Below, in pieces: positions 8,686 to 60,473 of a stretch of 64,000 bases of DNA. Made by a program: the position numbers and the translations under genes. Where the stretch lies: the sequence record SRR2962707_925, one strand, 5' to 3'. Below the pieces are notes generated by a model. The model was not told where the DNA came from. It saw only the letters and a list, made by a program, of their open reading frames with translations, and did no database searches. Within the stretch, counting starts at the first letter, position 1; each line of letters opens with the position of its first letter.

Positions 8686-8688
8686 GAT

Positions 8689-9864
8689 TTGGCGATCACC
8701 GAGACTTTGCGCCCAAACCGAGTCATTCCAGTGCTTGGGGGAGTGGCCCTGGCACTGGTCTGGTTGCTGGACCTTGGTACTATCCAACCCAACCGTATTG
8801 TTCCGGGCACCGGCCATGGCCTGTTTTCGGCCGTGGGATGGACAGGGGCAGGGCTGGTTACGGGGATTCTGTTGGCGACCATTGTGCTGTCCACATTGCC
8901 GTTACGTCGTCGCTATGAGCTCCTGCTCGGTCTGATTGGGCTTTCACTGGCAACGATGCCGCTGTTGCTGGATATGTTTGCCGCCCTCCATCTGCCCGAG
9001 GGGTCGCCCTACGCCCGTTCGTCGGTCGGGGCAGGGTTCTGGTCTCTTCTGTTCCTGCTTTCGCTGATGTTGATTGAGACCCTTGGCCGGCTCGAAGCCC
9101 GGCGTTGGCTTCAACTGATACTGCTCGTGTTTATCGGTGGGAGCTGGATTGTCCTGCTGCGTGGCGAGGGCCTGGAAAGTCTGTCGCTGGTGCGGGAGTT
9201 CAACGCTCGCCCCGACAAGTTCCAGCAAGCGCTCTGGACGCACCTGGCCCTGGCATTGGGTGCGGTCACCATCAGTGCGGGCCTGGCGTTCGCCCTGGCG
9301 CTTAAAATGATCCGAAGCCCCGCCTGGCAGCGTCCTCTTCTGGGCGCCGTGAGTTTTCTGCAAACCATTCCAAGCCTTGCGGTATTTGGTTTGCTGATTG
9401 CGCCACTCAGTGCGCTCTCGTCAGCGCTCCCGTTTCTGCAGGATCTTGGCATCCGGGGGATTGGCTGGGCGCCAGCGCTACTGGCGTTGATCGCTTACAG
9501 TTTGCTGCCGATGGTGCGCAACACCTTTGTGGCTCTTACCGAAGTTCCCGAAAGCCTGGCCGATGCGGCGCGGGGTATGGGTATGAATGAACACCAGGTG
9601 TTTTATCAGCTCAAGCTGCCGTTGGCGCTGCCGGTGATGATTGAGGGTGTACGGATCACAACCATTCAGGCAATCGGCCTGACGGCGGTAGCCGCCCTCA
9701 TCGGCGCGGGTGGTTTCGGTGGTTTTATCTTTCAGGGGTTGGGGCAGGCGGCGATGGACCTGGTGTTGCTCGGTGCTTTGCCTACGATTGCGTTGGCGCT
9801 GCTTGCCGACGCGTTACTCACGATGTTGGCGGCCAGTCTCAAGCCGACACCGGCAACGGTCTGA
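8689..9864 (+). CDS. yehY: Osmoprotectant ABC transporter permease (YehY-like)
   Basis: LQTIPSLA, DAARGMGM (EAA loop), AALIGAGGFG; TTG start. Confidence 0.85.
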   Translation: MAITETLRPNRVIPVLGGVALALVWLLDLGTIQPNRIVPGTGHGLFSAVGWTGAGLVTGILLATIVLSTLPLRRRYELLLGLIGLSLATMPLLLDMFAALHLPEGSPYARSSVGAGFWSLLFLLSLMLIETLGRLEARRWLQLILLVFIGGSWIVLLRGEGLESLSLVREFNARPDKFQQALWTHLALALGAVTISAGLAFALALKMIRSPAWQRPLLGAVSFLQTIPSLAVFGLLIAPLSALSSALPFLQDLGIRGIGWAPALLALIAYSLLPMVRNTFVALTEVPESLADAARGMGMNEHQVFYQLKLPLALPVMIEGVRITTIQAIGLTAVAALIGAGGFGGFIFQGLGQAAMDLVLLGALPTIALALLADALLTMLAASLKPTPATV

Positions 9865-9884
9865 TAGGGGAAGGAACTGGTCGG

Positions 9885-10832
9885 ATGATCGAACTGAAGA
9901 ATGTCTCCCGGCGTTTCGGCGATACCGTCGCAGTGGATGGGGTTAACCTGACCATCGAAACGGGTGAAGTCTGCGTGCTGGTGGGCAGTTCCGGCTGCGG
10001 TAAATCGACCACGCTGCGCATGATCAACCGTCTTTTGCCCCACAGCGCTGGCGAGATATTGGTGGATGGTGAGGACATCACCACCATGAATCCGGAACAG
10101 CTGCGGCTGAACATGGGGTATGTGATCCAGGGTACGGGGTTGTTTCCTCACTGGACGGTGGCGCGCAACATCGCCATGGTGCCCAGGTTATTGAACTGGC
10201 CGAGGGAGCGGATCGACGCACGAGTCGACGAGTTGATGACCTTGTTGGATCTCGACCCCAGCGCCCACGCCAACAAATACCCCCAGCAATTGTCTGGCGG
10301 CCAAGCGCAACGGGTCGGTGTTGCGCGGGCATTGGCGGCGGACCCCAACATTCTGCTGATGGACGAACCTTTTGGTGCATTGGATGCCATAACGCGGGAA
10401 AACCTCCAACTGGAAATGCTGCGGATCCAGAAGCAGGTCCGTAAAACCACTGTTTTCGTGACCCACGATATTGATGAAGCACTGAAGCTGGCCACCCGCA
10501 TTGCCGTGATGGATCAGGGGCGCATCATCCAGCATGACACGCCGGAGAATATCCTCCGCCATCCAGCATCGGACTTTGTTGAAAACCTGATTGGCAAGCA
10601 GGACCGCGGTCTGAAACTGATGAGCCTGCGGCCTGTGCGGGACCTGATGGCCAATCACACCGAGCCGCGGCAGTCGGAACCCGGGGAGCATGTGCTCAGG
10701 GAGGAGGACAGTATTCGCCTGGCTCTGTCCGTGATGCTCTGGCAGGACCTGCGGCAGGTCGCGGTGTTCAATGCGCAGGGGCAGGAGACAGGTGTGATTA
10801 CCCGTGAACGCATTATCCAGGAAGGCGTGTAA
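9885..10832 (+). CDS. yehX: Osmoprotectant ABC transporter ATP-binding protein (YehX-like)
   Basis: Walker A GSSGCGKST, LSGGQ signature, LMDEPFGALD, VTHD. Confidence 0.9.
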   Translation: MIELKNVSRRFGDTVAVDGVNLTIETGEVCVLVGSSGCGKSTTLRMINRLLPHSAGEILVDGEDITTMNPEQLRLNMGYVIQGTGLFPHWTVARNIAMVPRLLNWPRERIDARVDELMTLLDLDPSAHANKYPQQLSGGQAQRVGVARALAADPNILLMDEPFGALDAITRENLQLEMLRIQKQVRKTTVFVTHDIDEALKLATRIAVMDQGRIIQHDTPENILRHPASDFVENLIGKQDRGLKLMSLRPVRDLMANHTEPRQSEPGEHVLREEDSIRLALSVMLWQDLRQVAVFNAQGQETGVITRERIIQEGV

Positions 10833-11572
10833 TGCGTGTCTGGTTACCTGCCACTCTTTTGGCCTCACTGCTGCTCGTGCTGAGTGCCGGCATGCCGGTG
10901 CTGGAGCCATTGTTTAACTGGGTGCAGCCGGGCAAGCAGCAGGTGATCTATGAACGGGAGAGCTTTTTATTCCTGCTTCAGAATCACCTGATGCTGGTCG
11001 TCGTATCGGCGGCCGTGGGTACTCTCGTTGCGGTGGCTGGCGGCATCTTTGTCACCCGTCCTTTTGGCCGCGATTTCCTGCCCTTGGTTGGGCAAGTGGC
11101 CTCCATTGGCCAGACCTTTCCGCCGGTGGCTGTACTTGCGTTGGCGGTACCAGTGCTTGGTTTCGGCGAGGCTCCGATTCTTCTTGCGTTGGTCCTTTAT
11201 GGCTTGCTGCCCATTCTGCGCAATACCCTGGCGGGGCTGGAAGGTATCAATCCGGCTGTACGGGAGGCAGCACTGGGTATGGGCATGTCGCCAGTGCAGG
11301 TCCTTGTGCGAGTAGAACTGCCCCTGGCCGGAAGGGTCATTCTCGCGGGTATTCGAACCTCTGTTACTATCAATATCGCGACCGCCGCTATCGGCTCAAC
11401 CATTGGAGCCCGCACCCTGGGCGATCCGGTGATCGCCGGGCTGGTGAACGGCAATACCGCGTATGTGCTGCAAGGGGCGATTCTGATCGGGTTGCTTGCG
11501 CTGACAACGGATAGCCTGTTTGAAGCACTTGAACGATCCTGGGATCGTCGATTGCAATCCGTAGGAGTCTAG
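10832..11572 (+). CDS. yehW: Osmoprotectant ABC transporter permease (YehW-like)
   Basis: GQTFPPVAVLA, EAALGMGM, GIRTSVTINI motifs. Confidence 0.87.
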   Translation: MRVWLPATLLASLLLVLSAGMPVLEPLFNWVQPGKQQVIYERESFLFLLQNHLMLVVVSAAVGTLVAVAGGIFVTRPFGRDFLPLVGQVASIGQTFPPVAVLALAVPVLGFGEAPILLALVLYGLLPILRNTLAGLEGINPAVREAALGMGMSPVQVLVRVELPLAGRVILAGIRTSVTINIATAAIGSTIGARTLGDPVIAGLVNGNTAYVLQGAILIGLLALTTDSLFEALERSWDRRLQSVGV

Positions 11573-39986: not shown

Positions 39987-40847
39987 TCAGTGGCATAGGT
40001 GGCTGACAAAGCTGGAGACCGGTGGATGCCGGGCAATCGTCTCGGGGCAGATAACCACCAGTTCCTTGGCAAGCCCGGGATCGCTCACGGGGATGGCTCG
40101 CAGGGTGCCTGCTCTCACTTCGTCAGTGACCGAAGCCGCCAACACCAGCGAAATACCCACCCCCGCCTTGACCGCCTGCTTTACGGCTTCGGTACTGCCC
40201 AGTTGCATCGATACCTCCGGAAAAGGCCCGTCGTCGCCAAAGAAATTAGCCAATAAACGGCCAGTGCCGGTCCCTGGCTCGCCGCCCAGTAGCGTCATTC
40301 CTGCCAGGGCTTCCCGGTTGATCTGCGTCATATCGGCACAGGGGTGGCCAGGCGGCACAATCAACACCACTGGCTCCTGTTTCCAGTCACGGGCCTGGAA
40401 GCCGGGCTTGGGGTGCCACCACTCCATGACTGCGATATCCAATTCTCCGCTGGTGAGCTGTCGTGCGATGGCGGGGTTATTGTCGATCACCAGATCCACG
40501 TGCGGAGAGGTCTTCCGGTCCATGAAGGAGCGAACGTGAGGCTGCAGCATGTAGATACCGATGTTGGAGCTGGCACCTACCCGCAGACTTGTTCCCGTGA
40601 CCGCCTCCTGCGCGCGTTGGTCCAGGCGTAACATGCTTAGGGCGAACGGCATCAGCGCCTGGGCCGCCCTGGTGGGTTCGCAACCGGACTTGCCGCGTTG
40701 GATCAATAATACGTCCAGCTGCTCCTCCAGTTTCTGAATGTGCTGGGATAGGGTGGGCTGGGCGATGCCGAGGTGATTGGCGGCGGCCTGGAAACTGCGG
40801 TGCTGAACGAGGGTGATAAAACTCTTGAGCCAGACCAGGTTCAGCAT
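39987..40847 (-). CDS. ptxE: LysR family regulator PtxE
   Basis: LysR HTH; GASSNIG.Y; directly downstream of and overlapping ptxD. Confidence 0.85.
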
Positions 40848-41851
40848 ACTGTTCCCTTGGGTTCGAGCGGTGAGTTGACCGCGTCCTGGGGCTGATGGCC
40901 TCTGAGCGCCTGAAGGATGTTGTCGGCTGCCCGCTGTTCGATGGCAAATCTCACGTCCCTGACGGCCGAGCCCGTGTGTGCGGTGAACAGGGTGTTCGGG
41001 TGGGCCAGCAGTGCCGGATCAATCCGCTGCGGGCGGTCCGGTCTGGCCCAGTCTTCCATTTCAAACACGTCCGCCGCGTAGCCACCCAGATGTCCGTACG
41101 TCAGCGATTGCAGAACGGCTGCCTCGTCCACGACGGAACCCCGGCAGGGATTGATCAGAAAACTACCGCGTTTCATCTGGCGCAGGCGGTCAGCGTTGAG
41201 CGTGTGCAGGGTATGTTCATTAAGCGCCAGGGCCAGTATGACGATGTCGGATTCGGCCAGTAGGTCATCAAGCTCTGACCTGGAAAAGCCCAGGGCGTCT
41301 TCTTCGGCAGCCGGTAGGCTTTCCGGTTGTGAGTACAGTACTCGTGCGCCCCAGCCCTGGAGCCGTGTAGCCACGGCTTTGCCGATGGCTCCCATGCCCA
41401 CAATACCAATGGTCGAGCCTTCAATGCCGAGGCCATAGAATTGAGGCTGCCAGCCCTGGAATTCTCCGGAACGGACGAACTGGTCTGCTGGCCGGATCTG
41501 GCGAATCAGGCCTATGGTTAATCCAACGGTGAGTTCGGCGGTGGGCACGGTCAGCAAATCGGGCACGAAGGTCAGCCAGACTCCGTGACGGGTGCAGGCG
41601 TCCACGTCAAAGTTATCGAATCCCTTCAGGGCAGCGCCGATCACTTTCAGGTCGGGGCAGGCCACCAGAAATTCCTCGCTAACGCGATCTGGCATAAACG
41701 CCATCATGGCATCGGCCGTAGCCGCGCGAGCTCTCACCGAATCCGGTGGCAGGGTGACGGCAGACTGGTTAGTGATCAGCTCGCAGTGGGGCTCCAGGCT
41801 GGCAAGTATACTGTCGTGGACCCGGTGGGTGATGACAACTCTTGGTTTCAT
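40841..41851 (-). CDS. ptxD: NAD-dependent phosphite dehydrogenase
   Basis: [60 protein letters not shown], closely matching P. stutzeri PtxD. Confidence 0.95.
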
Positions 41852-41860
41852 TCGCTGTCC

Positions 41861-42691
41861 TTATTTGAATGTCTTACGGAGGTGGCCGCTCAGGCTGTCC
41901 ACCATCGTTACCATCAGCAGTATGACAATGAGGATGGCACTGACTTCCTGATACTGCATGATGCGCAACGACCCCATGAGCTCGAAGCCGATACCGCCGG
42001 CACCGACCATGCCCATGACGGTGGAGGCGCGAAAGTTGTATTCCCAGCGATAGATAGACACATCGGCAAACTGTGGTAGCACCTGCGGCAGAACCGCGTG
42101 CCAGAGTACTTGCAAACGCGTGGCTCCGGAGGCATCAGCGGCCTCAACGGGGGCTTCATCCACATGCTCTATGGCTTCTGCGAAGAACTTGCCGACCATG
42201 CCGATGGAATGCAGGCCAAGGGCCAACACCCCTGGCAGTGCGCCAAAACCCACGGCCGCGACGAAAATAATGCCCATGATGAGTTCCGGTACGGAACGCA
42301 GGCCGTTCAGCAGGGTGCGGGTCAGGTGAAACACAGCAGGGTGGGGCGTGGTGTTTCGGGCCGCCAGAAAAGCCAGGGGCACAGAGGCCGAAACCGCAAT
42401 CGCGGTGCCGGCGATGCTCATCGCCAGTGTGTCCAGCAGGGGCGACATCCAGTCCATCACATTGGTGAAATCAGGTGGTAGTGACTCTCGCAACAGGGTG
42501 GCGATCGCGGGGACGCCGTTAGCAAGGGTGCGGAAGTCGAGCAGGTCCACGTACCAGCTGGCGAAAAAGACCACCGCCAATACCAGGCCTGCCTGCCAAA
42601 GCTTGCTCCGCCAGCCCCGTGCGTGTTCGTCCAGCACGGAAGCCGACGGAGCCGGCGACAGGGCCGCCGGTTCCGTCGTCGTGTGAGTCAT
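41861..42691 (-). CDS. ptxC: Phosphite ABC transporter permease (PhnE family)
   Basis: RSVPELI, GKFFAEAIE, YRWEYNFRAS, GAGGIG; upstream of ptxD. Confidence 0.9.
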   Translation of the reverse strand: MTHTTTEPAALSPAPSASVLDEHARGWRSKLWQAGLVLAVVFFASWYVDLLDFRTLANGVPAIATLLRESLPPDFTNVMDWMSPLLDTLAMSIAGTAIAVSASVPLAFLAARNTTPHPAVFHLTRTLLNGLRSVPELIMGIIFVAAVGFGALPGVLALGLHSIGMVGKFFAEAIEHVDEAPVEAADASGATRLQVLWHAVLPQVLPQFADVSIYRWEYNFRASTVMGMVGAGGIGFELMGSLRIMQYQEVSAILIVILLMVTMVDSLSGHLRKTFK

Positions 42692-42699
42692 AAAGCCTC

Positions 42700-44411
<1,712 letters not shown>

Positions 44412-47754: not shown

Positions 47755-49098
47755 ATGGGCCCCACCATTCCGCCGGAAAGCTTTATCGACCTGCTGCTGG
47801 ACGCACTCTGCGTTGTAGATCGCGATGGCTACGTTCGCTACGTCAGCGCAGCCAGTGAGCGGGTATTTGGTTATCTGCCGGAGGAAATGATTGGACGGCG
47901 AATCCTGGATTTTGTTCATCCGGAGGACCTTGAGAAAACGCGCCAGGCTGTCAAAGAAATCCTGCGGGGAGAGCTGAAGCCGTACTTTGAGAACCGTTAC
48001 ATCCGCAAGGATGGCTCAACAGCCCATATCATGTGGTCTGCCCGTTGGTCTGAAAAGGAACAGATCCGCGTGGCGGTCGCCCGTGACGTGACCCAGCGCA
48101 AGCGGGCCGAGGCTATGCAGGCCGCCATGTATGCCATATCGGACGCAGCGAACAGTTCGGATAGCCTGCCTGCCATGTTCCGGCGAATTCACCAGGTTGT
48201 GGAAGGCCTGATGTCAGCGCCTGCTTTTATGGTGGCGCTCGTGGATACGCAGGGCGGTGAGTTGTACTTTCCCTATAATGCCGACCGTCATGAGACGGGA
48301 ACCCCCGGTTTCTCTCAGGATATCGGTTCTCTCTGTGAACAGGTCATCCGTTCCGCCAGGGCTCTGTTGCTGACGCCCGGAAGCAGCGTGGCTTTTTCGC
48401 CTCAGGCGATCGATACCTCGCACGTTGAGGTACGTCACCACTGGCTGGGTGTGCCTCTGAAATCATCCCAGGGTGTGTTCGGCGCGATTGCCGTACAAAG
48501 GCAATCAAAGAGTGCGTGTTACACGGACGAAGACAGAGAGCTGTTGGAGTTTGTCGGCATACAGGTTGCCGCCGCGGTGGAGCGTAAGCAAATGCAAGCG
48601 CAATTGGAGCATATGGCCAGGTACGACCAGCTGACGGAATTGCCGAACCGTAGCCTGGTCCTGGACCGGATTCAGACAGCGCTTGCGCGTGCAGCCAGGG
48701 AAGTCGGCTTTCTGGCGATACTGTACCTCGATCTGGATGACTTCAAGCAGGTCAACGATACCTACGGACACGCCGTCGGAGATCAGGTCTTGCAGGAAAT
48801 GGCTCGCCGATTGGTGCAGGGGGTTCGGGCCGCAGATACGGTTGGTCGGCTGGGTGGCGATGAGTTCATCGTGCTGCTTGATGGAATTGAACAGCCAAGT
48901 GACGCGGACAGTGTTGCTGAAAAATTGCGGGCAACTCTCAGTGAACCCTACGAGTTGCCGATGGCCTCCCTGACATTGATTCCAAGTATTGGTGTGGCTG
49001 TCTATCCCGAACACGGGGACAACCATGAAGCACTGATTCGCTACGCAGACAGCGCCATGTACCGGATGAAAAAAGGAAGACCGGATCCGGTTTCCTGA
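47755..49098 (+). CDS. PAS-GAF-GGDEF diguanylate cyclase
   Basis: PAS (FVHPED, RKDG), GAF (WLGVPL), DLDDFKQVND, intact GGDEF with RAAD I-site. Confidence 0.92.
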   Translation: MGPTIPPESFIDLLLDALCVVDRDGYVRYVSAASERVFGYLPEEMIGRRILDFVHPEDLEKTRQAVKEILRGELKPYFENRYIRKDGSTAHIMWSARWSEKEQIRVAVARDVTQRKRAEAMQAAMYAISDAANSSDSLPAMFRRIHQVVEGLMSAPAFMVALVDTQGGELYFPYNADRHETGTPGFSQDIGSLCEQVIRSARALLLTPGSSVAFSPQAIDTSHVEVRHHWLGVPLKSSQGVFGAIAVQRQSKSACYTDEDRELLEFVGIQVAAAVERKQMQAQLEHMARYDQLTELPNRSLVLDRIQTALARAAREVGFLAILYLDLDDFKQVNDTYGHAVGDQVLQEMARRLVQGVRAADTVGRLGGDEFIVLLDGIEQPSDADSVAEKLRATLSEPYELPMASLTLIPSIGVAVYPEHGDNHEALIRYADSAMYRMKKGRPDPVS

Positions 49099-49630: not shown

Positions 49631-49694
49631 TGACGTTTTTGGTTGTGCCAGTGTCGTATTGGTTCAACCTGATAACTGAAAACAGGGTCACATT
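49631..49694 (+). promoter_or_regulatory. GlxA/GbdR-type activator site (21-bp-spaced half-sites) plus -10 upstream of the aminomethyltransferase gene
   Basis: TGACGTTTTTGG-N8-GTGTCGTATTGG; CACATT 37 nt after the proximal TGTCG; near-identical copy at 59305-59336. Confidence 0.7.
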
Positions 49695-49728: not shown

Positions 49729-51090
49729 ATGGCCGTTAAATTTGAGCAAGCACTTCTGGATTATCCGCAGCAACGGGCGGGCGCCGCCCGCCAGCCTGAC
49801 AGTGTTGACCAGTCCGACCGTCGGGTTCCCATTAACCTGCGCCAGTCCGGCCCCACGCCGGTGGAGATGTTGATCTCCACCCGTGTACGCAAGTCGCCAT
49901 ACTGGCACCTGGCGTACGAAGCTGGATGCTGGCGGGCGACCGTTTACAACCGTATGTATCACCCCCGGGGCTATGTCCGTCCGGAAGATGGCGGCGCCAT
50001 GGTGGAATACGAGTCGCTGATACATGACGTCACCATGTGGAATGTCGCCGTAGAGCGCCAGATTCAGGTAAAGGGGCCGGACGCGGAACGCTTCGTGAAC
50101 TATGTGATTACTCGAGATGCCACCAAGATAAAACCTATGCGTGGCAAGTACGTCATCTTGTGCAATGAAGAGGGCGGCATTCTCAATGACCCGGTTCTGC
50201 TTCGTGTTGCCGAGGACGAGTTCTGGTTCTCCCTTTCCGATAGCGACCTGGAATTCTGGTTGCGGGGCGTCAACATCGGGATGGGCTTCAACGTCACCAT
50301 CGCGGAAATCGATGTAGCACCGGTGCAGATCCAGGGTCCCAAATCTGAGGCGCTCATGGCTGACCTGTTCGGTGAGCGAGTGAAGGATATTCCCTACTAT
50401 GGCTTGATGGAGGGCCAGGTGGCCGGTCATGACGTGATTATCTCCCAAACCGGTTTTACCGGTGAGAAGGGTTACGAGATTTACCTCAAGGAAGCCACCA
50501 AATACGCCGAAGACCTCTGGTACACCGTGCTTGCCGCCGGTGAGGCCCACAATCTGAGAGTGATTGCGCCGGCGCATCACCGCCGAATTGCTGCCGGTAT
50601 CCTTTCCTGGGGCCAGGATGTGGATCAGGAAACCCTGCCATTCCAGTGCAACCTAGCGTATCAGGTGCCTCGCAACAAGGACGCGGATTACATCGGTAAG
50701 CAGAAGCTCGAGAAAGTCCGCGAGCAACTGGACGCTGGCCGACCGCCTTTCAGTCACATCATGGTGGGTATCCGTTTTGGCGGTGGCCAGGTAACCGACT
50801 ATGCCAACGACTTCTGGCTGGTCAGCGGACCAGAAGGCGGCGAGCCAGAGGGCTATGTTACCTCGCCCTGGTATTCGCCCGAGCTGGAAACCAATATTGG
50901 CTTGGCCTATGTGCCGTTTGACCTGCGTGCTGTTGGCACCCGCCTGACGGTCCACCTGCCGGTGGAATACGCCGCTACGGATGGCTCAACGGCTGTCGAG
51001 GCGGAAGTGGTGGAAGTTCCGTTCCGGCCTTCGGTGAACCCCAACGCCCGCGAGAGGGCACGGGCGAAGGGAATCGACTTCGCGGACTAG
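49729..51090 (+). CDS. THF-dependent methyltransferase/aminomethyltransferase (GcvT superfamily, DmdA-like)
   Basis: RVRKSPY..TVYNRM, WNVAVERQ, GGILNDPV, FWFSLSDSDL, QIQGPKS..LM..LFGE, TGFTGEKGYEIY, C-terminal GYVTS barrel. Confidence 0.82.
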   Translation: MAVKFEQALLDYPQQRAGAARQPDSVDQSDRRVPINLRQSGPTPVEMLISTRVRKSPYWHLAYEAGCWRATVYNRMYHPRGYVRPEDGGAMVEYESLIHDVTMWNVAVERQIQVKGPDAERFVNYVITRDATKIKPMRGKYVILCNEEGGILNDPVLLRVAEDEFWFSLSDSDLEFWLRGVNIGMGFNVTIAEIDVAPVQIQGPKSEALMADLFGERVKDIPYYGLMEGQVAGHDVIISQTGFTGEKGYEIYLKEATKYAEDLWYTVLAAGEAHNLRVIAPAHHRRIAAGILSWGQDVDQETLPFQCNLAYQVPRNKDADYIGKQKLEKVREQLDAGRPPFSHIMVGIRFGGGQVTDYANDFWLVSGPEGGEPEGYVTSPWYSPELETNIGLAYVPFDLRAVGTRLTVHLPVEYAATDGSTAVEAEVVEVPFRPSVNPNARERARAKGIDFAD

Positions 51091-51100
51091 CAATGCAGTG

Positions 51101-51129
51101 GGGCAGACGGCGGTGGCCGTCGCCTGCCC
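51101..51129 (+). other. Intergenic stem-loop between the methyltransferase and metF-like genes
   Basis: gggcag-acggc-ggtg-gccgt-(cgc)-ctgccc; no U-tail. Confidence 0.45.
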
Positions 51130-51162
51130 GATGCAAGCAGGTATCAATGGGGTGCGTGATTC

Positions 51163-52092
51163 ATGAAACTGGTGAGTGATAAACAGCCGTTCAGTGCCCA
51201 TGACGCGGAAGCCACCGCACGGATGCAGGCCCTGGTACGTTGGGCGTCCATTGAGGCAACACCCCGCCAGATACTGGCACAGGAGCATTTGCCGGATTTG
51301 CTGCCGCGGGGCACCTGTGTCTACGTGCCTTTTCTGCCAAAAGGCCAGTTCAGCGATACCCTGCGGGCATGCCGACATACGCTGAGCGTTGGCATGCAGC
51401 CGATTCCTCACGTACCCGCACGTATGGCCGAGAGCCGCGGGCAACTTCGGGACTGGCTCTCGCAACTGAATGAAAGCGGCGTTGACCGTTTACTGCTGAT
51501 TGCCGGCGACAGCGATGCGATCGCCGGCCCTTTTCCAGATACCCTGGCCGTTCTGGAATCTGGCTTGCTGGCCCAGTTCCAATTCCATGGTATCGGTGTG
51601 GCAGCCCATCCGGACGGGCATCCCATGGCGGACCGGGCAACACTCATCCAGGCCCTTGGTATCAAACGCGAATACGCGCGCACGACGTCCACGCGGCTCT
51701 GGGTGGTCACCCAGTTCACCTTTGACGCCAACGTGGTCATCGACTGGCTGCAAAGCCTCGGCAGCATCCTGGAAGAGGTGCCGGTATACATTGGCATGGC
51801 CGGCCCGACACGGGTGAAAACGCTCATTGCCTATGCGGCTCAATGCGGAGTGGGAGCATCGGCCCGCCTGATGCTGCGACGCCCTGGCAGCGCCAAACTG
51901 TTGCGTGCGTGGTCGCCGGACGGAATGGTGCGCGCGCTTGTCCAGTATTGCCTGGACAACCCGGATACTTTGCTACGGGGCATTCATCTTTTCCCATTCG
52001 GTGGCCTGCGCCAATCGGCGCAATGGATTCAAGAACACAGTGGGTCCATTGAGGACCAGAGAGGTCAGTTCCATGAGTCTTCAGTACAGTAA
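51163..52092 (+). CDS. metF: Methylenetetrahydrofolate reductase (divergent MetF-like)
   Basis: [41 protein letters not shown]; an MTHFR barrel of the type seen in demethylation operons. Confidence 0.78.
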
Positions 52093-53809
52093 GCTGACAC
52101 CCGCAACACCACCGGAAGCTGACTTTCCGCCGCCGGGCACTCCTGACATTGAGATCGCTCGCTCGGTCCAGCCTCAGTCTATTCTGCTGCTGGCCCAGCA
52201 GCGTTTCGGTCTGCCAGGGGAGAGCCTGGTGCCGTTCGGCCACTACAAGGCCAAACTGGATATGGCCTATGTGGATACCTCTGATAGTGCGCCCCGGGGC
52301 AAGCTGGTACTGGTGACCGCCATAACGCCCACGCCAGCGGGGGAGGGCAAGACCACCACCAGTGTGGGATTGAACGACGGTTTCAATCGCCTGGGCGTGC
52401 GTTCGTCCGTGTGCCTGCGGGAGCCCTCCCTGGGCCCCTGTTTCGGCATGAAAGGGGGCGCAGCCGGCGGTGGCCGCGCGCAGGTGATTCCGATGGAAGA
52501 CATCAATCTGCATTTCAACGGTGACTTCCACGCCATCACCACGGCCCATAATCTGCTGGCGTCGTTGATCGACAACCACATTCACTGGGGTAATGAAACT
52601 GGCCTGGACCCTCGTTATGTGAGCTGGCGGAGGGTGATGGATCTTACCGACCGATCCCTGCGCAACATGGTGTGCGGGCTTGGTGGTGCGGCCCATGGCG
52701 TGCCCCGGGAAACCGGGTTCGATATTACGGTGTCCTCCGAGATCATGGCGATCCTGTGCCTGGCGGACGGTCGGGCGGACCTCAAGCAGCGGCTGGGCAA
52801 TATCATTATCGGCAGGCGCTCTGATATGACTCCGGTGACCGTTCGTGACCTGGGTGTGGAAGGGTCGTTAACCGTGCTTCTGAAAGAAGCGCTGCAGCCT
52901 AATCTGGTCCAGAGTTTGGAGCACAACCCGGTGTTTATCCACGGTGGGCCGTTTGCCAATATCGCCCATGGATGCAACTCCGTGACCGCCACCCGTGCGG
53001 CTCTGGCACTGAACGATGTGGTCGTCACCGAGGCGGGATTTGGCGCCGACCTGGGGGCGGAAAAGTTCATAGATATCAAGTGCCGGCAAACAGGCTTGCG
53101 GCCAGACGCCGCCGTGGTTGTCTGTACCATTAGAGCACTCAAGATGCAGGGTGGGGTCCCTCGCAGCCAGCTCTCCGTTCCCGACCTTGCTGCTTTGAGG
53201 GCCGGTGCCGCCAACCTGGAGCGACACGTTCGTAATCTGCAGCAGTTCGGACTGACGCCAGTGGTGTGCATCAACCGTTTCCCAGACGATACCGAGGAGG
53301 AAATGTCGCTGGTGCAGTCCATCAGTGAGTCGCTGGGTGTGCGTGCTGTGCCTGCCGACCACTGGGCTATGGGTGGTGAGGGTGCCACCGAACTGGCCCA
53401 GGCGGTGCTTGATCAGATGGACGAAGGCACACCTGAGGTGAACTTTCTCTATGAAGACGGCCTGCCGCTGGCGGATAAAATCCGCACCATCGCCACGCGC
53501 ATTTACCACGCCGGTAGCGTGGAATTCACCACGGTGGCGAAGCGGCAGTTGGAGGAATACGAAAGCCTGGGGTTTGGCCACCTGCCAGTATGTATTGCCA
53601 AGACTCAGTACAGCTTTTCGGCGGACTCGTCGGTGAAGGGAGCGCCGTCCGGCCATATGCTTCCGGTAAGGGAAGTGCGCCTGGCGGCCGGCGCCGGCTT
53701 TGTGGTGGCGGTGTGTGGTGACATCATGACCATGCCCGGTTTGCCACGCCATCCCGCGGCACTGGACATTGCTCTGGATGAAAACGGCCTGGTGGTGGGG
53801 TTAACCTGA
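52073..53809 (+). CDS. fhs: Formate--tetrahydrofolate ligase
   Basis: [64 protein letters not shown] 52073 with GAGG RBS. Confidence 0.95.
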
Positions 53810-54913
53810 CCCGGTGTTCTCGAAAATGCCATAGGTCGGCTCAGACCGGGCGCGCCTCAATGCCTGCAGAGAGGAAGACGGCAGGCTGGCCATGGAATCG
53901 GTAAAAACCGCGCTGGAAGAGCCCTGGGAATAAATTTCCATTCGCTCGTGTTTGGGCGCTCGCCCCATGGTCTTGCGATAGCATCGGCTGAAGTGGGTGG
54001 CGGACACGAACCCACACATGGAGGCGATTTCCACAATCGAGCAGGATGTCTGCTTGAGCAATCGGCGTGCCCGGTTAAGGCGCACCCGCAGGTAATAGCG
54101 CGAAGGCGTGCAGCCCGTGTGCTTGAGGAACAACCGTTCCAGTTGCCGCCGCGAAATGCCGGCCAGTGTTGCCAGCTCCTTCAGTTCGATGGGCTCTTCG
54201 ATATTGGCCTCCATCAACTGGGCCGCCTCCGCCAGTTTGGGTTGGGCGCACGCCAGTCGCGGGTGCATGGGCATCGGTTGCTGTTCACTTTCCTCGCGCA
54301 CCCGGTCGCACACAAACATGTGGGATATTGCATTACTGAGCTCCTGGCCGTGACGCCTTGCCAGAAAGCTGAGCATCATGTGCATGGGGACGGTACCACC
54401 GGTACAGGTCATGCGTTCCCGCTCGACGGTGAACAGGCGGTTGTTGGTCTGTACCCGTGGGAAACCCTCCTGCATGGCCTCCAGGCATTCCCAATGGGCG
54501 CTACAGGCATGACCGTCGAGAAGGCCTGCGCTGGCCAGGACATAGGGGCCAGTGCAGACCGCCCCAAGGAGGACGTGGCGACGCGCCATCTGCTTCAACC
54601 AGACGACCTCTTTGCGGGAAAAACTCCGGGTAACATCAATACCGGCCACCACGATCACCAGGTCAAACCGGTGCTCTTCCTGGATCGACCCGTCGGGCAG
54701 CATGGTAATGCCATCGCTGGCACGGGCAGGTTCGCCTTCGGCGGTAAGCAGCTTCCAGGAATAGAGTTCAGTACCGGCCAATTGGTTGGCCATGCGCAGT
54801 GGCTCAACCGCCGTGGCGAGGGCAATCAGGGTGAAATTATCGATCAGCAGGAAGCCGACCCGATAGGGCTCTTGGGCGGGCCTGTCTGTGTGTGAGCCTG
54901 TGTCAGCGGTCAT
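53801..54913 (-). CDS. GlxA family (DJ-1 + AraC) transcriptional regulator, GbdR/SouR-like
   Basis: [51 protein letters not shown]. Confidence 0.9.
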
Positions 54914-55242: not shown

Positions 55243-56625
55243 GTGGCTGTCAGTCTGTTTGAGCTGTTCAAGGCAGGCATTGGCCCGTCCAGTTCCCATA
55301 CCGTCGGGCCCATGGAGGCCGCGCGCCGGTTTGCAGGTGGCCTGGACGATGAATGTCTGCTGGCTTCCGTGCATCGACTGAAGGTATCCCTATATGGCTC
55401 TTTAGGTGCTACCGGCAAGGGGCATGGTACTGGACCGGCTGTGATGATGGGGCTGGAAGGCGAGCAACCGGCCCGGATTGATCCGGAGCAAATGCCGGGG
55501 CGGCTTGAGCGTATTCGAAGCACAGGAACACTCAGCCTCGCTGGTCAACATCAGATTCGTTTCCGCGAGAGTACCGATATCGTGTATTACCGACGGAAAT
55601 CCCTGCCAGAACACCCCAACGGCATGGTCTGTCAGGCATTTGACGAGCACGGGCAGTGCCTGTGTGAGCATACCTATTACTCGGTCGGCGGTGGTTTTGT
55701 GGTGGCGGCGAACGCCGATGGCAGCCTGGAAATCCGCGCAGACGACACGCCCTTGCCTTATCCCTTCAACAGCGGGAAAACCCTGTTGGCCCTTTGCCAG
55801 GAACACGAGCTCACCATCGCCGACATAATGTTGGCCAATGAGCAGGCCTGGCGTACGGCCGATGACATTCGAACGGGCATTCTCGAGCTCTGGCGGGTGA
55901 TGCGTGAGTGTGTGCAAAACGGTATCCGCCATGAAGGGGAGTTGCCCGGAGGCCTCAAGGTTCGGCGCAGGGCTGCGTCGCTGTATCGCTCGCTGATGGA
56001 TAAAACGCGAGTGGACCTGATATCGCCGTCGTTGAGCGCGCTCGACTGGGTGAATCTCTATGCCCTCGCCGTCAATGAAGAGAACGCGGCCGGCGGTCGG
56101 ATTGTGACTGCACCGACCAACGGCGCCGCCGGCATTATTCCTGCGGTGCTGCACTACTACTGGGAGTTCTGCCCCCAGGCGGATGAAGACGGCGTTGTCC
56201 GCTTTATGCTGACAGCGGCGGCAATTGGCGTTCTGTTCAAAGAAAACGCGTCCATTTCAGGGGCGGAAGTGGGTTGTCAGGGCGAAGTGGGATCGGCCTG
56301 TGCGATGGCTGCTGCCGGCCTGGCTGCAGCGACAGGCGGCTCACCGGAACAGGTTGAGAACGCGGCCGAGATTGGTATGGAGCACCATTTGGGGATGACC
56401 TGTGACCCCATTGGTGGGTTGGTGCAAATTCCCTGTATCGAGCGTAATGCCATGGCATCGGTGAAAGCCATCGACGCAGCCATTATGGCTTTGCGGGGAG
56501 ACGGCAAGCATTTTGTGTCCCTCGACAAGGTGCTGCACACCATGCGGGAAACCGGTCGCGATATGCTGGACAAGTACAAGGAAACTTCAAGAGGCGGGCT
56601 GGCGGTCAACATCATCGAGTGCTGA
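55243..56625 (+). CDS. sdaA: L-serine ammonia-lyase (Fe-S dependent)
   Basis: [56 protein letters not shown]. Confidence 0.95.
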
Positions 56626-56652: not shown

Positions 56653-59223
56653 TCAGGACTTGACCCGCTCGTTGTCCGGATCAAACAGCGCCCGGTAGCC
56701 GACGGCTTCGATACGGATGGGGTAGTGCTCCTGGAAGTATTCCAGGGTCAGTTCCCGGCCCTCCTGAGCATACTCCACGGGAATGTACCCCAGCAGGATG
56801 ATCTTGCCCACTGACGGCCCCCACACCACGCTGGTGTTGTAGGAGCGGCGGCCGTGACTGTCCACCAGCACTTCTCCGGTTTGCGGGTCGAGGATCGGCC
56901 ACTGGCCAACCGGGTAGCGCAATACCCCGTTGGCATCCCGATGTTCCGTCATGGTCATGGTGCACAGGTACGCGGCCTGCTGTGACCAGCTTCGTTGTTC
57001 CAGGTAGGCGGCCTTGCCATGGAAGTCTGCCTCCTTGACCTTGGGTCGCTGGAGTCCGGCTTCGTAAAGGTTGTACTCCGTTTCGAGGTCTACGTTCTGC
57101 AGCCGCAGGCTCTTCTCCAGACGGCGCGTGTTGGCGTAGGTTTCGATGCCAACCGGCGTAACGCCAGCGTCGTACAGCAGATCCCAGATTCGCAGGCCAT
57201 AGCTGAACGGGAAGTAGAGCTCCCAGCCCTGTTCGCCCACATAGGATATCCGGAACGCCCACACCGGCACGCCCTGGACATTCAGTTCCCGGGCGGTGGC
57301 AAATGGGAAATTCTCTGCCGACAGCTCGTCAGGGTTGGTGACGAACTGTGCCAGCGTTTCCCGCGCCTTCGGCCCCCAAAGCCCCAGGGTGGCCAGCTCA
57401 TCGGTGCGGTCCTGCAGGCGGATATTGTTCAGGCCTTTTTCCCGTGCGATGCGTTTGATCCAGCAATGGTCCCGATGGCCAGTGTCGCCGCCGCAGACCA
57501 CCCGATAATCGTTGTCGCCCCGCCGGATGATGGTCAGGTCTGAGCGGATGCCGCCACGGGCATCCAGAAAGTGAGTATAAACACCCTTGCCATGAGGGAT
57601 GGTACCGCCCACCTTGGCGACGGACAGATACTCCAGCAGAGTTTCGGCGTCGTCTCCGGAGATGTCGAAAATAGCGAAGTGGGACAGGTTGATCATGCCC
57701 ACCGATTCGCTCATTTCCAGTTGCTCGGCGTTGGACACTTCCCAGAAATGCCGGGCGTCCCATTCATGTTCCCGTACCGGAATGCGGTCGCGGTATTTCG
57801 CCAGCAAAGTGGACTCGTTCGCGGCGTAGCCGTGAGCCCGCTCCCAGCCGGCGGCTTCCATGAAGTAGGCACCCAGCTCGACTTCCCGCAGATAGAAGGG
57901 GCTGGTTCGCATCCTGCGACCGGTCATGTAGGGCTCGCGGGGATGCACCGCCGGGGTGTAGATTTTTTTGGCGGTTTCGTAGCAGCGGTTGTACACGTAG
58001 TTCGGGGTTTTCTGCAGCGGATAGTGGCGGGCGATGTCGATGCTGTGGGGGTCCATCTCCGGAGAGCCATGGGTCATCCAGTCCGCCAGGATTTTGCCTG
58101 CACCGGGGCCATCCTTGACCCAGACCGCTTCACAGAACCAGAGGTTGCGCACTTCCGGGGATTCCCCCATCAGTGATCCGCCGTCGGGTGTGACCGACAG
58201 CAGGCCGTTAAAGGAGTGCTTTTCCTCCCAGCCCAGTTCGCCAAGGATCGGCGTCATTTCGATGGCTTTTTCGTAGGCGTCCATAACCTGATCCAACGTC
58301 AGATCTCGCATGGATGGCGACATCCGCGCCTCGCCGGGCTCGGAAATGGCCGCGGGGTAGACCAGTCGGGGATCTTCCGCTTCGTAATAGCCCCACTCAA
58401 TGCGGCCACCCTCGGTGGTGGTAGGGTCGCCAGTATCCCGCACGTAGGCGGAGTTGCCCTGGTCGCGGAACAAGGGATAGACAATCTGCTTACCGGTGCC
58501 GGCCAGTTCCTCGTAAGGGCCGAAGAACAGCAGCGGGTGTTCCAGTGGCATCAGCGGCAGGGGCGAGTTGGCGGTGTTGGCCATCAGGGGCCCCCAGATG
58601 CCCATGGACAGCACCACATACTCGGTTTCGATATAGCCCTTGTGGGTTTCAACGCCCCGTACCTGGCCGTTCTGTACGTCGATGCGGATGGCCGGTGTGT
58701 AGGCAAAGGCCTGCAATTTTCCGGTAGCGACCGCCTCTTCAACCAGATCGCCTGCAACGCTCTGGGAGCGGGGCACCACCAGCCCCGCGTCCGGGTCCCA
58801 CATGGCGCCCTGGATACAGTCTTCGTTCAGCAGGGGAAACAGTTCTTTCGCCTGTTTCGGTGAAATCATACTGACGTTGGTGCCGAACGCCTTGCCGGAA
58901 CCGACCTTGCGGCGGAGTTCGTCCATGCGCTCGTCGTCATCAGCGCGAGCCACTTCCATGCCGCCGCATTTCACATAGTTGCCGCGCTTTTCATAGAACG
59001 CCTGGCTGTACTTGGTGGTGTAGATATTCAGCTTGTCGTGGGAGGTGGTGAAGCAGAAGTCCGAGGCATGGGAGGTAGAGCCGATGTCCGAGGGAATGGC
59101 GGATTTTTCCAGCCCGACGATGTCATCCCAGCCCTGTTCGATCAGGTGGTGGGCGACCGATGAGCCAACGATACCGCCCTGGCCAATGATGACGACTTTT
59201 GCACGTTTCGGTAGTTGTGCCAT
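56653..59223 (-). CDS. Dimethylglycine oxidase/[17 protein letters not shown] FAD oxidoreductase with GcvT (THF-binding) domains
   Basis: Rossmann IIGQGGIVG, GSTSHA (covalent FAD His), TPDG...GE, GWERA, RISYVGEQGWE, RRLEKS; 856 aa. Confidence 0.85.
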   Translation of the reverse strand: MAQLPKRAKVVIIGQGGIVGSSVAHHLIEQGWDDIVGLEKSAIPSDIGSTSHASDFCFTTSHDKLNIYTTKYSQAFYEKRGNYVKCGGMEVARADDDERMDELRRKVGSGKAFGTNVSMISPKQAKELFPLLNEDCIQGAMWDPDAGLVVPRSQSVAGDLVEEAVATGKLQAFAYTPAIRIDVQNGQVRGVETHKGYIETEYVVLSMGIWGPLMANTANSPLPLMPLEHPLLFFGPYEELAGTGKQIVYPLFRDQGNSAYVRDTGDPTTTEGGRIEWGYYEAEDPRLVYPAAISEPGEARMSPSMRDLTLDQVMDAYEKAIEMTPILGELGWEEKHSFNGLLSVTPDGGSLMGESPEVRNLWFCEAVWVKDGPGAGKILADWMTHGSPEMDPHSIDIARHYPLQKTPNYVYNRCYETAKKIYTPAVHPREPYMTGRRMRTSPFYLREVELGAYFMEAAGWERAHGYAANESTLLAKYRDRIPVREHEWDARHFWEVSNAEQLEMSESVGMINLSHFAIFDISGDDAETLLEYLSVAKVGGTIPHGKGVYTHFLDARGGIRSDLTIIRRGDNDYRVVCGGDTGHRDHCWIKRIAREKGLNNIRLQDRTDELATLGLWGPKARETLAQFVTNPDELSAENFPFATARELNVQGVPVWAFRISYVGEQGWELYFPFSYGLRIWDLLYDAGVTPVGIETYANTRRLEKSLRLQNVDLETEYNLYEAGLQRPKVKEADFHGKAAYLEQRSWSQQAAYLCTMTMTEHRDANGVLRYPVGQWPILDPQTGEVLVDSHGRRSYNTSVVWGPSVGKIILLGYIPVEYAQEGRELTLEYFQEHYPIRIEAVGYRALFDPDNERVKS

Positions 59224-59262: not shown

Positions 59263-59336
59263 GCCTTGATTCAATGTGGCCCGGATCGGTCAAGGATGGT
59301 AAATCCAATACGACACCAAGTCGTCCAAAAACGGCA
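59263..59336 (-). promoter_or_regulatory. GlxA/GbdR-type activator site plus -10 upstream of the DMG-oxidase-like gene
   Basis: Minus strand TGCCGTTTTTGG-N8-GTGTCGTATTGG, then 22 nt, then GGGCCACATT; same layout as 49631-49694. Confidence 0.72.
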
Positions 59337-59354: not shown

Positions 59355-60473
59355 TCAGGCCAGTTCGCAGGCCTCCGTAATCACCCGGTTTCGGCCAGCG
59401 GCCTTGGCGCGGTATAGCATGGCGTCGGCCCGGCTGATGGCATCCTCGATGCCCTGTCCAGGCAGGTACTCGGCAATACCGACGGTGGCAGTCACGGAGA
59501 CACCCGCGATGGGTGCCCTTTCAATGGCGCGGCGGCAGCGTTGTGCGGCGTGGCGGGCGCTGCGAAGGTCCACGCCCGGTGTGGCGACGAGGAATTCGTC
59601 TCCGCCCCAGCGAGCGGCGAGGTCCACTTCACGAACGGTTTTGGAAAGGATAGCGGCAAATTCGCGAATCACCGCATCACCAACTTCGTGGCCGTAGTCA
59701 TCGTTGATGCTCTTGAATTCGTCAATATCAATCAGAATGATGGTCAGAGGGCGCTGGTATCGGTCTGCCTGGGCGGCTTCGGCAGACAGGAAACGGTCAG
59801 CACCCCGGCGGTTTGCCAGGCCGCATAGCGGATCTGTGTTCGCCCAATGGTGCAGGGTCTCGGCTCGCGCAAAGGCACTCCAGGAGCGTTCACGCAGCAG
59901 CGTTCCGGCGCTGGTAAGCACCAACAGAACGGTGAGGAACAGATGGATGCGCAGCAGGTATACCCAGTTTTGACAGTGATCGCCTGCTGCCAGGAAGCAT
60001 TGAGAGACTTCCTGAGTGGTCAGCGCGCCCGAAAACAGCAAGGTCGCGACACCTGTCACCATGCCGCCCCGAAAACCAAGCGCAATAAAACCGCCAACGA
60101 TCATGATACCCACTGCCCAGTAGTGCCCGCCCGTGAGCAAAAGAAGGTGTTCGCCGAGCGGGTCGCCAACCGCAAAATGCCATGCGAGGCGGCTGAGTAT
60201 CATCGTACCGACCACGGCAACGAGGGTGATTTCCATGGTTCTGAGCTGCAAGGATCGGCGCCAGAATGCGAAGCCAAGAATGGTGAGAATGACAGAAAAA
60301 ACAGGGTAGGCGATGGTAATGAACGGGTCGCCCTGTTCCCGGAAGGCCCAACTGAGCATCATGATAGCCACGGTCAAGGCCAGAACGCCAAGATAGGTGC
60401 GCCGCCGGTAGGTCTCAAGGCGGTTAAGTTCTATTTTGACGGCTTGGAGATGATTTCCGGGTGCTGGGTCCAT
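59355..60473 (-). CDS. Membrane-bound GGDEF diguanylate cyclase
   Basis: N-terminal TM segments, D.LCGLANR, DIDEFKSIND, REVD I-site, WGGDEF. Confidence 0.9.
   Translation of the reverse strand: MDPAPGNHLQAVKIELNRLETYRRRTYLGVLALTVAIMMLSWAFREQGDPFITIAYPVFSVILTILGFAFWRRSLQLRTMEITLVAVVGTMILSRLAWHFAVGDPLGEHLLLLTGGHYWAVGIMIVGGFIALGFRGGMVTGVATLLFSGALTTQEVSQCFLAAGDHCQNWVYLLRIHLFLTVLLVLTSAGTLLRERSWSAFARAETLHHWANTDPLCGLANRRGADRFLSAEAAQADRYQRPLTIILIDIDEFKSINDDYGHEVGDAVIREFAAILSKTVREVDLAARWGGDEFLVATPGVDLRSARHAAQRCRRAIERAPIAGVSVTATVGIAEYLPGQGIEDAISRADAMLYRAKAAGRNRVITEACELA

Follow-up and report, generated by a model that had tools for sequence, protein, structure and literature searches.

A DmdA-related protein paired with a type 4 methylenetetrahydrofolate reductase is a candidate glycine betaine demethylase in a Marinobacter-type bacterium and its relatives

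Glycine betaine is among the most abundant osmolytes and labile sources of nitrogen and carbon in the sea and in saline soils, and the way in which aerobic bacteria remove its first methyl group is debated. The question is raised by sequence record SRR2962707_925, a 64-kb stretch of DNA (64,000 nucleotides, here called the window) belonging to a Marinobacter-type bacterium, in which a stand-alone GcvT-fold protein of 453 amino acids (aa) is encoded (49729..51090, + strand) upstream of a divergent methylenetetrahydrofolate reductase (MTHFR; 51163..52092, +) and a formate-tetrahydrofolate ligase (Fhs; 52073..53809, +). What does the GcvT-fold protein do? A preliminary description of the stretch had reported these three genes, with a regulator, a serine dehydratase and a dimethylglycine (DMG)-oxidase-like enzyme as neighbours, and every part of that layout was borne out. 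Here we argue that the 453-aa protein is very probably a demethylase that forms methyl-tetrahydrofolate (methyl-THF) from an onium osmolyte. The narrower proposal that it is a glycine betaine:THF methyltransferase, independent of both cobalamin (B12) and oxygen, is probably correct, the case for it being one of comparative genomics only.

Curated NCBIfam and TIGR equivalog models, each with its own cut-off, were used to name proteins. By Pfam, the 453-aa protein consists of GCV_T (137.6 bits) and GCV_T_C domains with no further domain, and the motifs that had first suggested a likeness to the dimethylsulfoniopropionate (DMSP) demethylase DmdA are present in its translation as ATVYNRMY, WNVAVERQ, GGILNDPV and WFSLSDSDL. 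DmdA is indeed its top curated model (NF009133), at 266.4 bits against a cut-off of 410, and the DmdA of Pelagibacter ubique (3tfh) is its best solved relative (E=1.5e-47). Scores against the GcvT models TIGR00528 and NF001567 are 141.4 and 158.4 bits (cut-offs 235.85 and 300), and those against the LigM and DesA models NF047885 and NF047633 are 29.5 and 45.2 bits (cut-offs 580 and 800). Apart from its extensions the protein is similar in length to DmdA, with which it shares the GcvT fold. It differs in a further N-terminal stretch of about 40 residues, which had also been remarked on at the outset and is confirmed by the alignment of its residue 50 with residue 9 of 3tfh; this stretch is conserved in the family from about residue 26 (invariant Q28, R31, V33 and P34 onward in a 15-row alignment), as is a C-terminal tail.

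The protein belongs to a large family. Of 8000 candidates scored in a homologue search, 4396 reached E≤0.001; the top 120 are 74-96% identical to it and carry only generic names, and a protein of Marinobacter adhaerens falls into its 90% identity cluster. A scan of one genome per species found at least 595 stretches that encode a relative. The best 80 of these, at 69-99% identity, come from gammaproteobacteria (Marinobacter, Halomonas, Litchfieldella, Vibrionaceae, Woeseiaceae, Spiribacter and Azotimanducaceae), alphaproteobacteria (Pelagibacteraceae, many single-cell genomes, Geminicoccaceae, Caenispirillum and Hyphomicrobiales), Micrococcaceae and Brevibacterium, one metagenome-assembled genome (MAG) of Gemmatimonadota and two MAGs of Spirochaetia. 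These 80 loci form our neighbourhood set, and 50 gene-carrying genomes were picked from them for diversity; since many of the 50 are MAGs or single-cell genomes, absences in this set are soft. Genome-level absences were read from the nearest complete genome, G001 (locus L020; one 4.6-Mb contig, completeness 97, contamination 6), which has 77% of sampled words in common with the window, and in part from a second near genome, G002.

Where the family stands in relation to DmdA was asked in two ways. Across the 50 genomes, scores against the DmdA model fall into three bands: true DmdA, as defined by the model cut-off of 410 bits and not by assay, at 471-504 bits in eight genomes; an intermediate DmdA-like group at 302-390 bits in 12; and the focal family at 248-276 bits in all 50. 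All eight carriers of true DmdA, seven of them SAR11-like and one actinobacterial, have the focal gene as a separate gene besides. Sequence identity of the focal protein amounts to 27-32% with the true DmdAs sampled, 34-41% with the intermediate group and 22-23% with GcvT. In a maximum-likelihood tree of 41 rows (IQ-TREE, LG+C20+F+G4; support as ultrafast bootstrap/SH-aLRT) the focal family forms a clade of its own (99/100), whose stem measures 2.84 changes per column, true DmdA forms another (100/99), and the intermediate paralogues lie between the two. Together the three make up a superclade (100/99) that excludes GcvT as well as the GcvT domains within SoxA and the DMG-oxidase-like protein. 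The sister relation of the focal clade to one intermediate row is unsure because long branches meet at that join, a caution that does not touch its separateness from DmdA. The preliminary description would have been refuted by a place inside the bona fide DmdA or LigM clades; the tree puts the protein outside the DmdA clade, its scores lie far below the LigM and DesA cut-offs, and the curated cut-offs and the separate clade together rule out membership of any of these four families. Thirty-seven residues invariant in the focal family are shared with the DmdA rows and with at least 85% of the intermediate rows. Mean column identity in the 15-row family alignment is 78%, and the short branches within the clade, set against its long stem, suggest that the function of the family was fixed early and then kept under strong constraint.

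Could the protein nevertheless be a divergent DMSP demethylase, with the function of true DmdA? DmdA supplies both its best curated model and its best solved relative, and low identity alone would not decide the matter, because gammaproteobacterial DmdAs at just 35-40% identity to ratified enzymes are functional (PMC10746254). Against this reading, every one of the 50 genomes gives a focal score under the DmdA cut-off, eight of them possess a true DmdA in addition, and the separate clade has a long stem and an identity of 27-32% to the true DmdAs sampled. Nor do clusters of AMP-binding ligase, acyl-CoA dehydrogenase or enoyl-CoA hydratase recur beside the focal gene. Such a setting is found instead around an intermediate paralogue of Halomonas salinarum (L137, genome G015). 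Genes for an AMP-binding ligase, an enoyl-CoA hydratase, an MTHFR, a PurU-like protein and FolD surround it, as would be expected of a cluster for DMSP demethylation, while the focal gene of the same organism lies elsewhere with its own type 4 MTHFR (see below) and Fhs. This split, along with the coexistence of the focal gene and true DmdA in eight genomes, indicates a division of labour between paralogues, and we regard DMSP demethylation by the focal protein as quite improbable. Other intermediate paralogues have other surroundings: in a Marinobacter sp. (L136, G007), formate dehydrogenase subunits, a 318-aa protein without a Pfam match and FolD; in G022 (L138), a PhyH protein and a second fusion of an FAD oxidase to GcvT. 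The intermediate group may therefore cover several further substrate classes.

The second gene of the operon says more about what the first one makes. The product of 51163..52092 (309 aa) has no Pfam match at E≤0.001 and scores 30.5 bits against the MTHFR model TIGR00676, for which the cut-off is 293.7. When a 15-row profile of its family was compared with the PDB, the match to 7xg9/7xlf was very strong (E=3.1e-82, 279 bits), the next, to an ordinary MTHFR, reaching 2.3e-13. Structure 7xg9 is S6MTHFR of Sphingobium lignivorans SYK-6, the metF product of that organism's ligM-metF-ligH operon. According to Yu et al. (2025; PMC11868366), this enzyme oxidises CH3-THF and barely reacts with NADH, and it defines a 'type 4' of MTHFR that is coupled with THF-dependent demethylases; in its loop beta2-alpha3, Leu48-Pro49 block NADH, and Arg78 fixes the position of Leu48.

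S6MTHFR residues were mapped onto the window protein by hand through the ungapped blocks of the profile alignment. Leu48-Pro49 correspond to Leu58-Pro59 of the window protein, both at least 90% conserved in the 15 rows. Cys219 of helix alpha8 is matched by the Cys of the window motif AAQCGVG, and Pro268-Phe269-Gly-Gly-Leu of loop beta8-alpha11 by Pro278-Phe279-Gly-Gly-Leu within HLFPFGGL, where Phe279 is invariant in the family and Gly280 and Gly281 are nearly so. The one difference concerns Arg78, which aligns with Met88 in a column that varies in the family; the neighbouring S6MTHFR Arg77 aligns with Arg87, which is invariant. The 309-aa protein is, by these sequence features, a type 4 MTHFR, and by analogy with S6MTHFR it would be expected to oxidise 5-methyl-THF to 5,10-methylene-THF.

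With a methyl-THF-oxidising MTHFR as partner, the GcvT-fold enzyme is to be seen as a maker of methyl-THF rather than of methylene-THF. This bears on a further explanation, in which the 453-aa protein would be a free-standing T-protein-like module that captures an iminium or formaldehyde equivalent from an amine oxidase, a role that in SoxA and DMG oxidase falls to the C-terminal domains. The GcvT fold itself, the amine oxidases among the neighbours and the want of any other stand-alone GcvT protein in G001 all agree with it. It would, however, leave the conserved MTHFR partner without a substrate, and it would duplicate a domain that the DMG-oxidase-like enzyme and SoxA already possess. Moreover, G001 has no GcvP, the protein groups with DmdA and not with GcvT or the fused domains, and an Asp that is invariant in the GcvT rows is Asn in the focal family. 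We hold this explanation to be highly improbable.

The third gene completes the set. Fhs scores 833.9 bits against FTHFS and 842.2 bits against NF010030 (cut-off 652); translation probably begins at the in-frame ATG at 52073, which gives an overlap of 20 bases with the MTHFR gene, its stop codon (52090-52092) included. Fusions of the two proteins occur in other genomes. By BLASTP, an 855-aa protein at L047:11320-13887 matches the window MTHFR at 47% identity across 275 residues and the window Fhs at 63% across 554, and Fhs-cluster open reading frames (ORFs) of 912-1307 aa at L050, L053 and L049 are presumed from their length alone to be fusions of the same kind. These fusions tie demethylase, MTHFR and Fhs into one pathway. 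A 1410-aa ORF at L063 was rejected as a further case, having no domain before residue 1037, and is put down to an over-long ORF call. The likeness to ligM-metF-ligH that had been drawn from gene order now extends to homology of the MTHFR, and order and logic are common to both operons: a THF-dependent demethylase, an MTHFR that oxidises methyl-THF, and Fhs. The systems differ in the demethylase, that of the window being neither LigM nor DesA, and in the expected methyl donor, an N-methyl onium compound rather than an aryl methyl ether. FolD, which would link MTHFR to Fhs and which had been predicted to lie outside the stretch, is encoded elsewhere in both G001 and G002; the two genomes also have three BCCT transporters and a BetA over its cut-off.

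If the protein forms methyl-THF, where does the methyl group come from? The neighbours in the window point to methylglycines. Tail to tail with fhs lies a regulator gene (53801..54913, -) whose product matches NF052371 over its full length at 506.5 bits (cut-off 480) and has DJ-1_PfpI and HTH_18 domains; by this equivalog cut-off it is an AraC/DJ-1 regulator of the GbdR type, which governs choline and betaine catabolism. It is followed by L-serine ammonia-lyase (SdaA; 55243..56625, +; TIGR00720, 690.5 bits, cut-off 345.1) and by the 856-aa DMG-oxidase-like fusion of an FAD oxidase to GcvT (56653..59223, -), which has DAO, FAO_M, GCV_T and GCV_T_C domains and whose best solved relative over its full length is the N,N-dimethylglycine oxidase of Arthrobacter (1pj5, E=2e-108). 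As the preliminary description had it, gcvP, gcvH, a Rieske oxygenase, a protein of the betaine-homocysteine methyltransferase (BHMT) type and sarcosine oxidase subunits are all missing among 59 ORFs of the window that were scanned against Pfam.

The operon and the DMG-oxidase-like gene also share a possible control element. The 12-mer GTGTCGTATTGG occurs at 49651..49662 (+), 67-78 nt upstream of the demethylase start codon, and again at 59305..59316 (-), 82-93 nt upstream of the DMG-oxidase-like gene and in equal orientation relative to transcription. No other exact copy occurs in the window, and both stand at promoters of the cluster; with up to one mismatch allowed, three copies are found where 0.18 are expected. 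The element is kept at both places in G001 and in the Marinobacter loci L022, L024, L025, L030, L031 and L032, and the spacer between the gbdR-type gene and sdaA also has the flanking pattern GTATT...TCAACCTGA. It is a candidate site for a shared activator, which could be GbdR. A scan for sigma-70 promoters between 49000 and 60000 gave no site, with 3.9 expected, an outcome that carries no weight either way. Four RNA libraries from two studies contain 69-86% of the sampled words of the operon, and contigs from RNA libraries span both the demethylase/MTHFR junction (X13 and X6) and the MTHFR/fhs junction (X7 and X2), although DNA carry-over is possible and such a contig does not show a single transcript. 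Within the 72-nt spacer between the demethylase and MTHFR genes there is a GC-rich inverted repeat, GGGGCAGACGGCGG...CCGTCGCCTGCCC (51098-51130), with no T run behind it, and the RNA-library contigs cross it.

The gene neighbourhoods of other genomes likewise favour glycine betaine. ORFs called in the window and in the 80 loci were grouped into clusters, the clusters found within 10 kb on either side of a family member were counted, and their representatives were named with NCBIfam and Pfam; the family cluster comprises 79 places (the window plus 78 of the loci, the other two having been lost through over-long ORF calls). A DMG-oxidase-like fusion is present in 57 of the 79 places, a type 4 MTHFR in 52, Fhs in 31, soxB or soxA in 30, a GbdR-like regulator in 29, serine dehydratase in eight and a BCCT transporter in four; MTHFR or Fhs, the latter counted to catch fusions, is found in 58. 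At least one of the DMG-oxidase-like, sox and GbdR-like genes is nearby in 64 places, and in 48 of the 56 with at least 8 kb on both sides. In the same ±10 kb, clusters of Rieske, MttB or BHMT proteins do not recur in three or more places. SAR11-like loci read soxB-D-A-G, DMG-oxidase-like gene, type 4 MTHFR and family member, with the MTHFR directly upstream of the family member in loci from Pelagibacteraceae and single-cell amplified genomes (L068, L069, L072-L076, L078 and others).

An instructive case is Photobacterium satsumensis (L043), where soxB and soxA are followed in turn by the family member, type 4 MTHFR, Fhs, M19 peptidase, DUF5943, a 686-aa protein with OYE (old yellow enzyme) and Pyr_redox domains, and a DUF3483/CCG protein. 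From their domain architecture the last two would be DgcA-like and DgcB-like. The final four genes match the pepD-hp-dgcAB arrangement described for Vibrio natriegens, in which a second cluster has gbcAB with soxBDAG (PMC12093977). L043 has no gbcAB, its genome gives no match to GbcA or MttB, and the three-gene module seems to occupy the position at which gbcAB would act.

In 27 of the 79 places the family is accompanied by a conserved protein of roughly 276 aa with a weak match to PhyH (E=3e-4), encoded either upstream of soxB or in the interval from Fhs to the DMG-oxidase-like gene (for example L074:521-1351, L047:13905-14735, L050:13885-14727, and 24 more loci); it is absent from the window.

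The neighbourhoods also frame the explanation that competes most directly for the substrate, namely that the protein is a THF-dependent methyltransferase of like kind acting on another onium osmolyte, whose demethylated product the FAD-GcvT fusion would handle. Choline, carnitine or gamma-butyrobetaine, proline betaine, beta-alanine betaine, trigonelline or homarine, and dimethylsulfonioacetate are candidates. The partnership with a type 4 MTHFR speaks for the formation of methyl-THF and not for the source of the methyl group, and in 15 of the 79 places the DMG-oxidase-like, sox and GbdR-like genes are all absent within 10 kb. Yet the commonest neighbours belong to the route from betaine to glycine, the window regulator passes the GbdR equivalog cut-off, the L043 cluster combines sox and dgcAB-like genes in the absence of gbcAB, and genes characteristic of proline betaine or carnitine catabolism do not recur as neighbours in three or more places. 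With the genomic distributions described below also taken into account, another osmolyte as substrate seems to us unlikely but by no means negligible.

If glycine betaine is the substrate, genomes with the module might be expected to manage without the known demethylases, and the preliminary description had called for a search for gbcAB and sox genes. In G001 there is no GbcA: its one large Rieske oxygenase is BenA (763.5 bits) and scores 119.9 bits against the GbcA model, for which 670 are needed. No SoxB passes its cut-off (best 67.7 of 529 bits), no MttB-family protein is present, and no stand-alone protein of the BHMT type was found, the S-methyltransferase domain occurring only in a 1235-aa MetH frame. 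GcvP is also missing by its GDC-P domain, GcvH not having been searched for. G001 has only two genes with a GCV_T domain, the family member and the DMG-oxidase-like gene, and one ordinary MTHFR elsewhere in the genome. A 684-aa OYE protein, encoded beside an enoyl-CoA hydratase, has the appearance of a dienoyl-CoA reductase and not of DgcA. Among the 50 gene-carrying genomes, GbcA is over its cut-off in six and an MttB-family protein is present in eight, with no genome having both, so that 36 have neither. We also observed that in the nearest genome the DMG-oxidase-like gene and that for Mrp antiporter subunit A are each split into two adjacent frames (G001:C1:3707339-3708183, L019:11933-14334), probably through assembly indels and not through real breaks.

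Several observations weigh against glycine betaine as the substrate, or against the protein as its demethylase. The absences just described were read from G001, a relative of the window's bacterium with 77% of sampled words in common, and not from its own genome. BHMT is excluded for G001 only, because Pfam cannot separate it from other homocysteine methyltransferases, and stand-alone proteins with the S-methyltransferase domain are common in the 50 genomes. Six of these genomes have GbcA as well as the family gene, and in the four of them with annotated loci (L036, L046, L051 and L062) the module lies away from the DMG and sarcosine genes, a pattern that would suit another osmolyte. At two loci an MttB-family (possibly non-Pyl) gene directly follows the DMG-oxidase-like gene in the operon of the family member (L047:17059-18765 and L050:17236-18777), and one of the two enzymes there could have a different substrate or the two could be redundant. 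More generally, co-occurrence with GbcA or MttB could reflect redundancy between isozymes that do and do not depend on oxygen or cobalamin, or else another onium substrate.

Two acidic residues of DmdA are also replaced by amides: all 21 family rows have Asn105 and Gln306, where all 6 DmdA, 9 intermediate and 3 GcvT rows have Asp and Glu. Dimethylglycine is itself only the predicted substrate of the DMG-oxidase-like enzyme, and betaine demethylation by the 453-aa protein is a candidate activity drawn from gene comparison alone. There is a chemical objection too. Attack by N5 of THF on the methyl group of a quaternary ammonium is harder than on that of a sulfonium, the former being the poorer electrophile, and the betaine methyltransferases known so far rely instead on a zinc-thiolate or on Co(I).

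The MttB-family genes at L047 and L050 could also be taken to mean that the family member is a methyl-corrinoid:THF methyltransferase serving a cobalamin-dependent MttB/MtgB system. No corrinoid protein was seen in the 21-kb loci L047 and L050, no cluster of corrinoid proteins recurs in the neighbourhoods, and 42 of the 50 gene-carrying genomes have no MttB-family protein, nor has G001; such a role is scarcely credible. Where an operon has both, the family member and the MttB-family enzyme may instead be B12-independent and B12-dependent isozymes, in the manner of MetE and MetH.

With glycine betaine as the preferred substrate, the route would run as follows. The 453-aa protein would pass one N-methyl group from glycine betaine straight on to N5 of THF, giving dimethylglycine and 5-methyl-THF, by the redox-neutral transfer from an onium compound to THF that DmdA performs on DMSP. 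The adjacent type 4 MTHFR would oxidise 5-methyl-THF to 5,10-methylene-THF with an acceptor other than NAD, FolD would convert this to 10-formyl-THF, and Fhs, running in reverse, would free formate, make ATP and recycle THF. The DMG-oxidase-like enzyme would take off further methyl groups as methylene-THF, and the resulting glycine would pass through serine to pyruvate, the last step by way of SdaA. GbdR would probably turn the units on. The preliminary description had named glycine betaine, sarcosine or a related methylated osmolyte as possible substrates of a demethylase without need of B12 or oxygen. The demethylase part is supported, and the neighbourhoods point to glycine betaine; sarcosine and DMG are unlikely as direct methyl donors, since they are not onium compounds.

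How does this compare with the routes already described? GbcAB (a Rieske monooxygenase), BHMT and the cobalamin-dependent MtgBCD occupy the same place in the pathway, from betaine to dimethylglycine. None is homologous to the focal protein, which would require no oxygen, homocysteine or cobalamin. MtgBCD comes closest, with an equal net reaction and a metF paralogue as partner, in the account of Mausz et al. (2025; PMC12478193), who propose that it closes a gap in betaine demethylation alongside GbcAB and BHMT; that paper names these three routes and contains no mention of the focal family. Yu et al. (2025; PMC11868366) searched with LigM, DesA, CmuAB and Dmt, and DmdA, GcvT and betaine do not figure in their paper. 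We incline, by a narrow measure, to the view that the family is a fourth and widespread first step of glycine betaine catabolism, a single-protein betaine:THF methyltransferase independent of cobalamin, oxygen and homocysteine and paired with a type 4 MTHFR, which would be spread over SAR11 relatives, Marinobacter, Halomonas, Vibrionaceae and Actinomycetota. From DmdA such an enzyme would differ in its gene surroundings, those of betaine and not DMSP metabolism, as well as in the residues named above.

The genes themselves have been pointed out before. In 'Candidatus Pelagibacter ubique' HTCC1062, Sun et al. (2011; PMC3160333) drew attention to SAR11_1265, which they described as a DmdA-like aminomethyltransferase whose substrate was unknown, beside the putative metF SAR11_1264, and they speculated on demethylation of methylmercaptopropionate (MMPA) and not of betaine. 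Smith et al. (2016; PMC5069961) report that both genes change expression under sulfur limitation. The pair has the same make-up as the metF and GcvT-like genes in our loci from Pelagibacteraceae and single-cell amplified genomes, and by analogy with the Pelagibacteraceae locus L069 we infer that SAR11_1265 belongs to the focal family. The word 'undescribed', as first applied to this route, thus holds for the function and fails for the genes, which have been known as a pair since 2011. No published function for the family was found by full-text searches of the literature, which did not cover the supplementary tables of PMC11868366 and PMC12478193, which might list homologues. What is new is therefore the functional reading. 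If it is true, bacteria have an additional betaine route that needs neither cobalamin nor oxygen, a SAR11 gene pair unexplained since 2011 gains a function, gene-based estimates of betaine turnover in ocean metagenomes change, and DmdA-type chemistry reaches from sulfonium to ammonium methyl donors.

Some other features of the window may be recorded. A glycine betaine ABC transporter of the OpuAC type (binding protein, two permeases and ATPase) is encoded at 7753-11572 (+), 38 kb upstream of the cluster, and may supply it with substrate. The betaine cluster is flanked by two diguanylate cyclases, a PAS-GAF-GGDEF protein (47755-49098) and a membrane GGDEF protein (59355-60473). Finally, the region 39987-44411 (-) encodes an ABC ATPase, a binding protein of the phosphonate/phosphite type (PF12974), a permease, a 336-aa D-2-hydroxyacid dehydrogenase and a LysR regulator, a layout that matches that of a ptxABCDE operon for phosphite oxidation.

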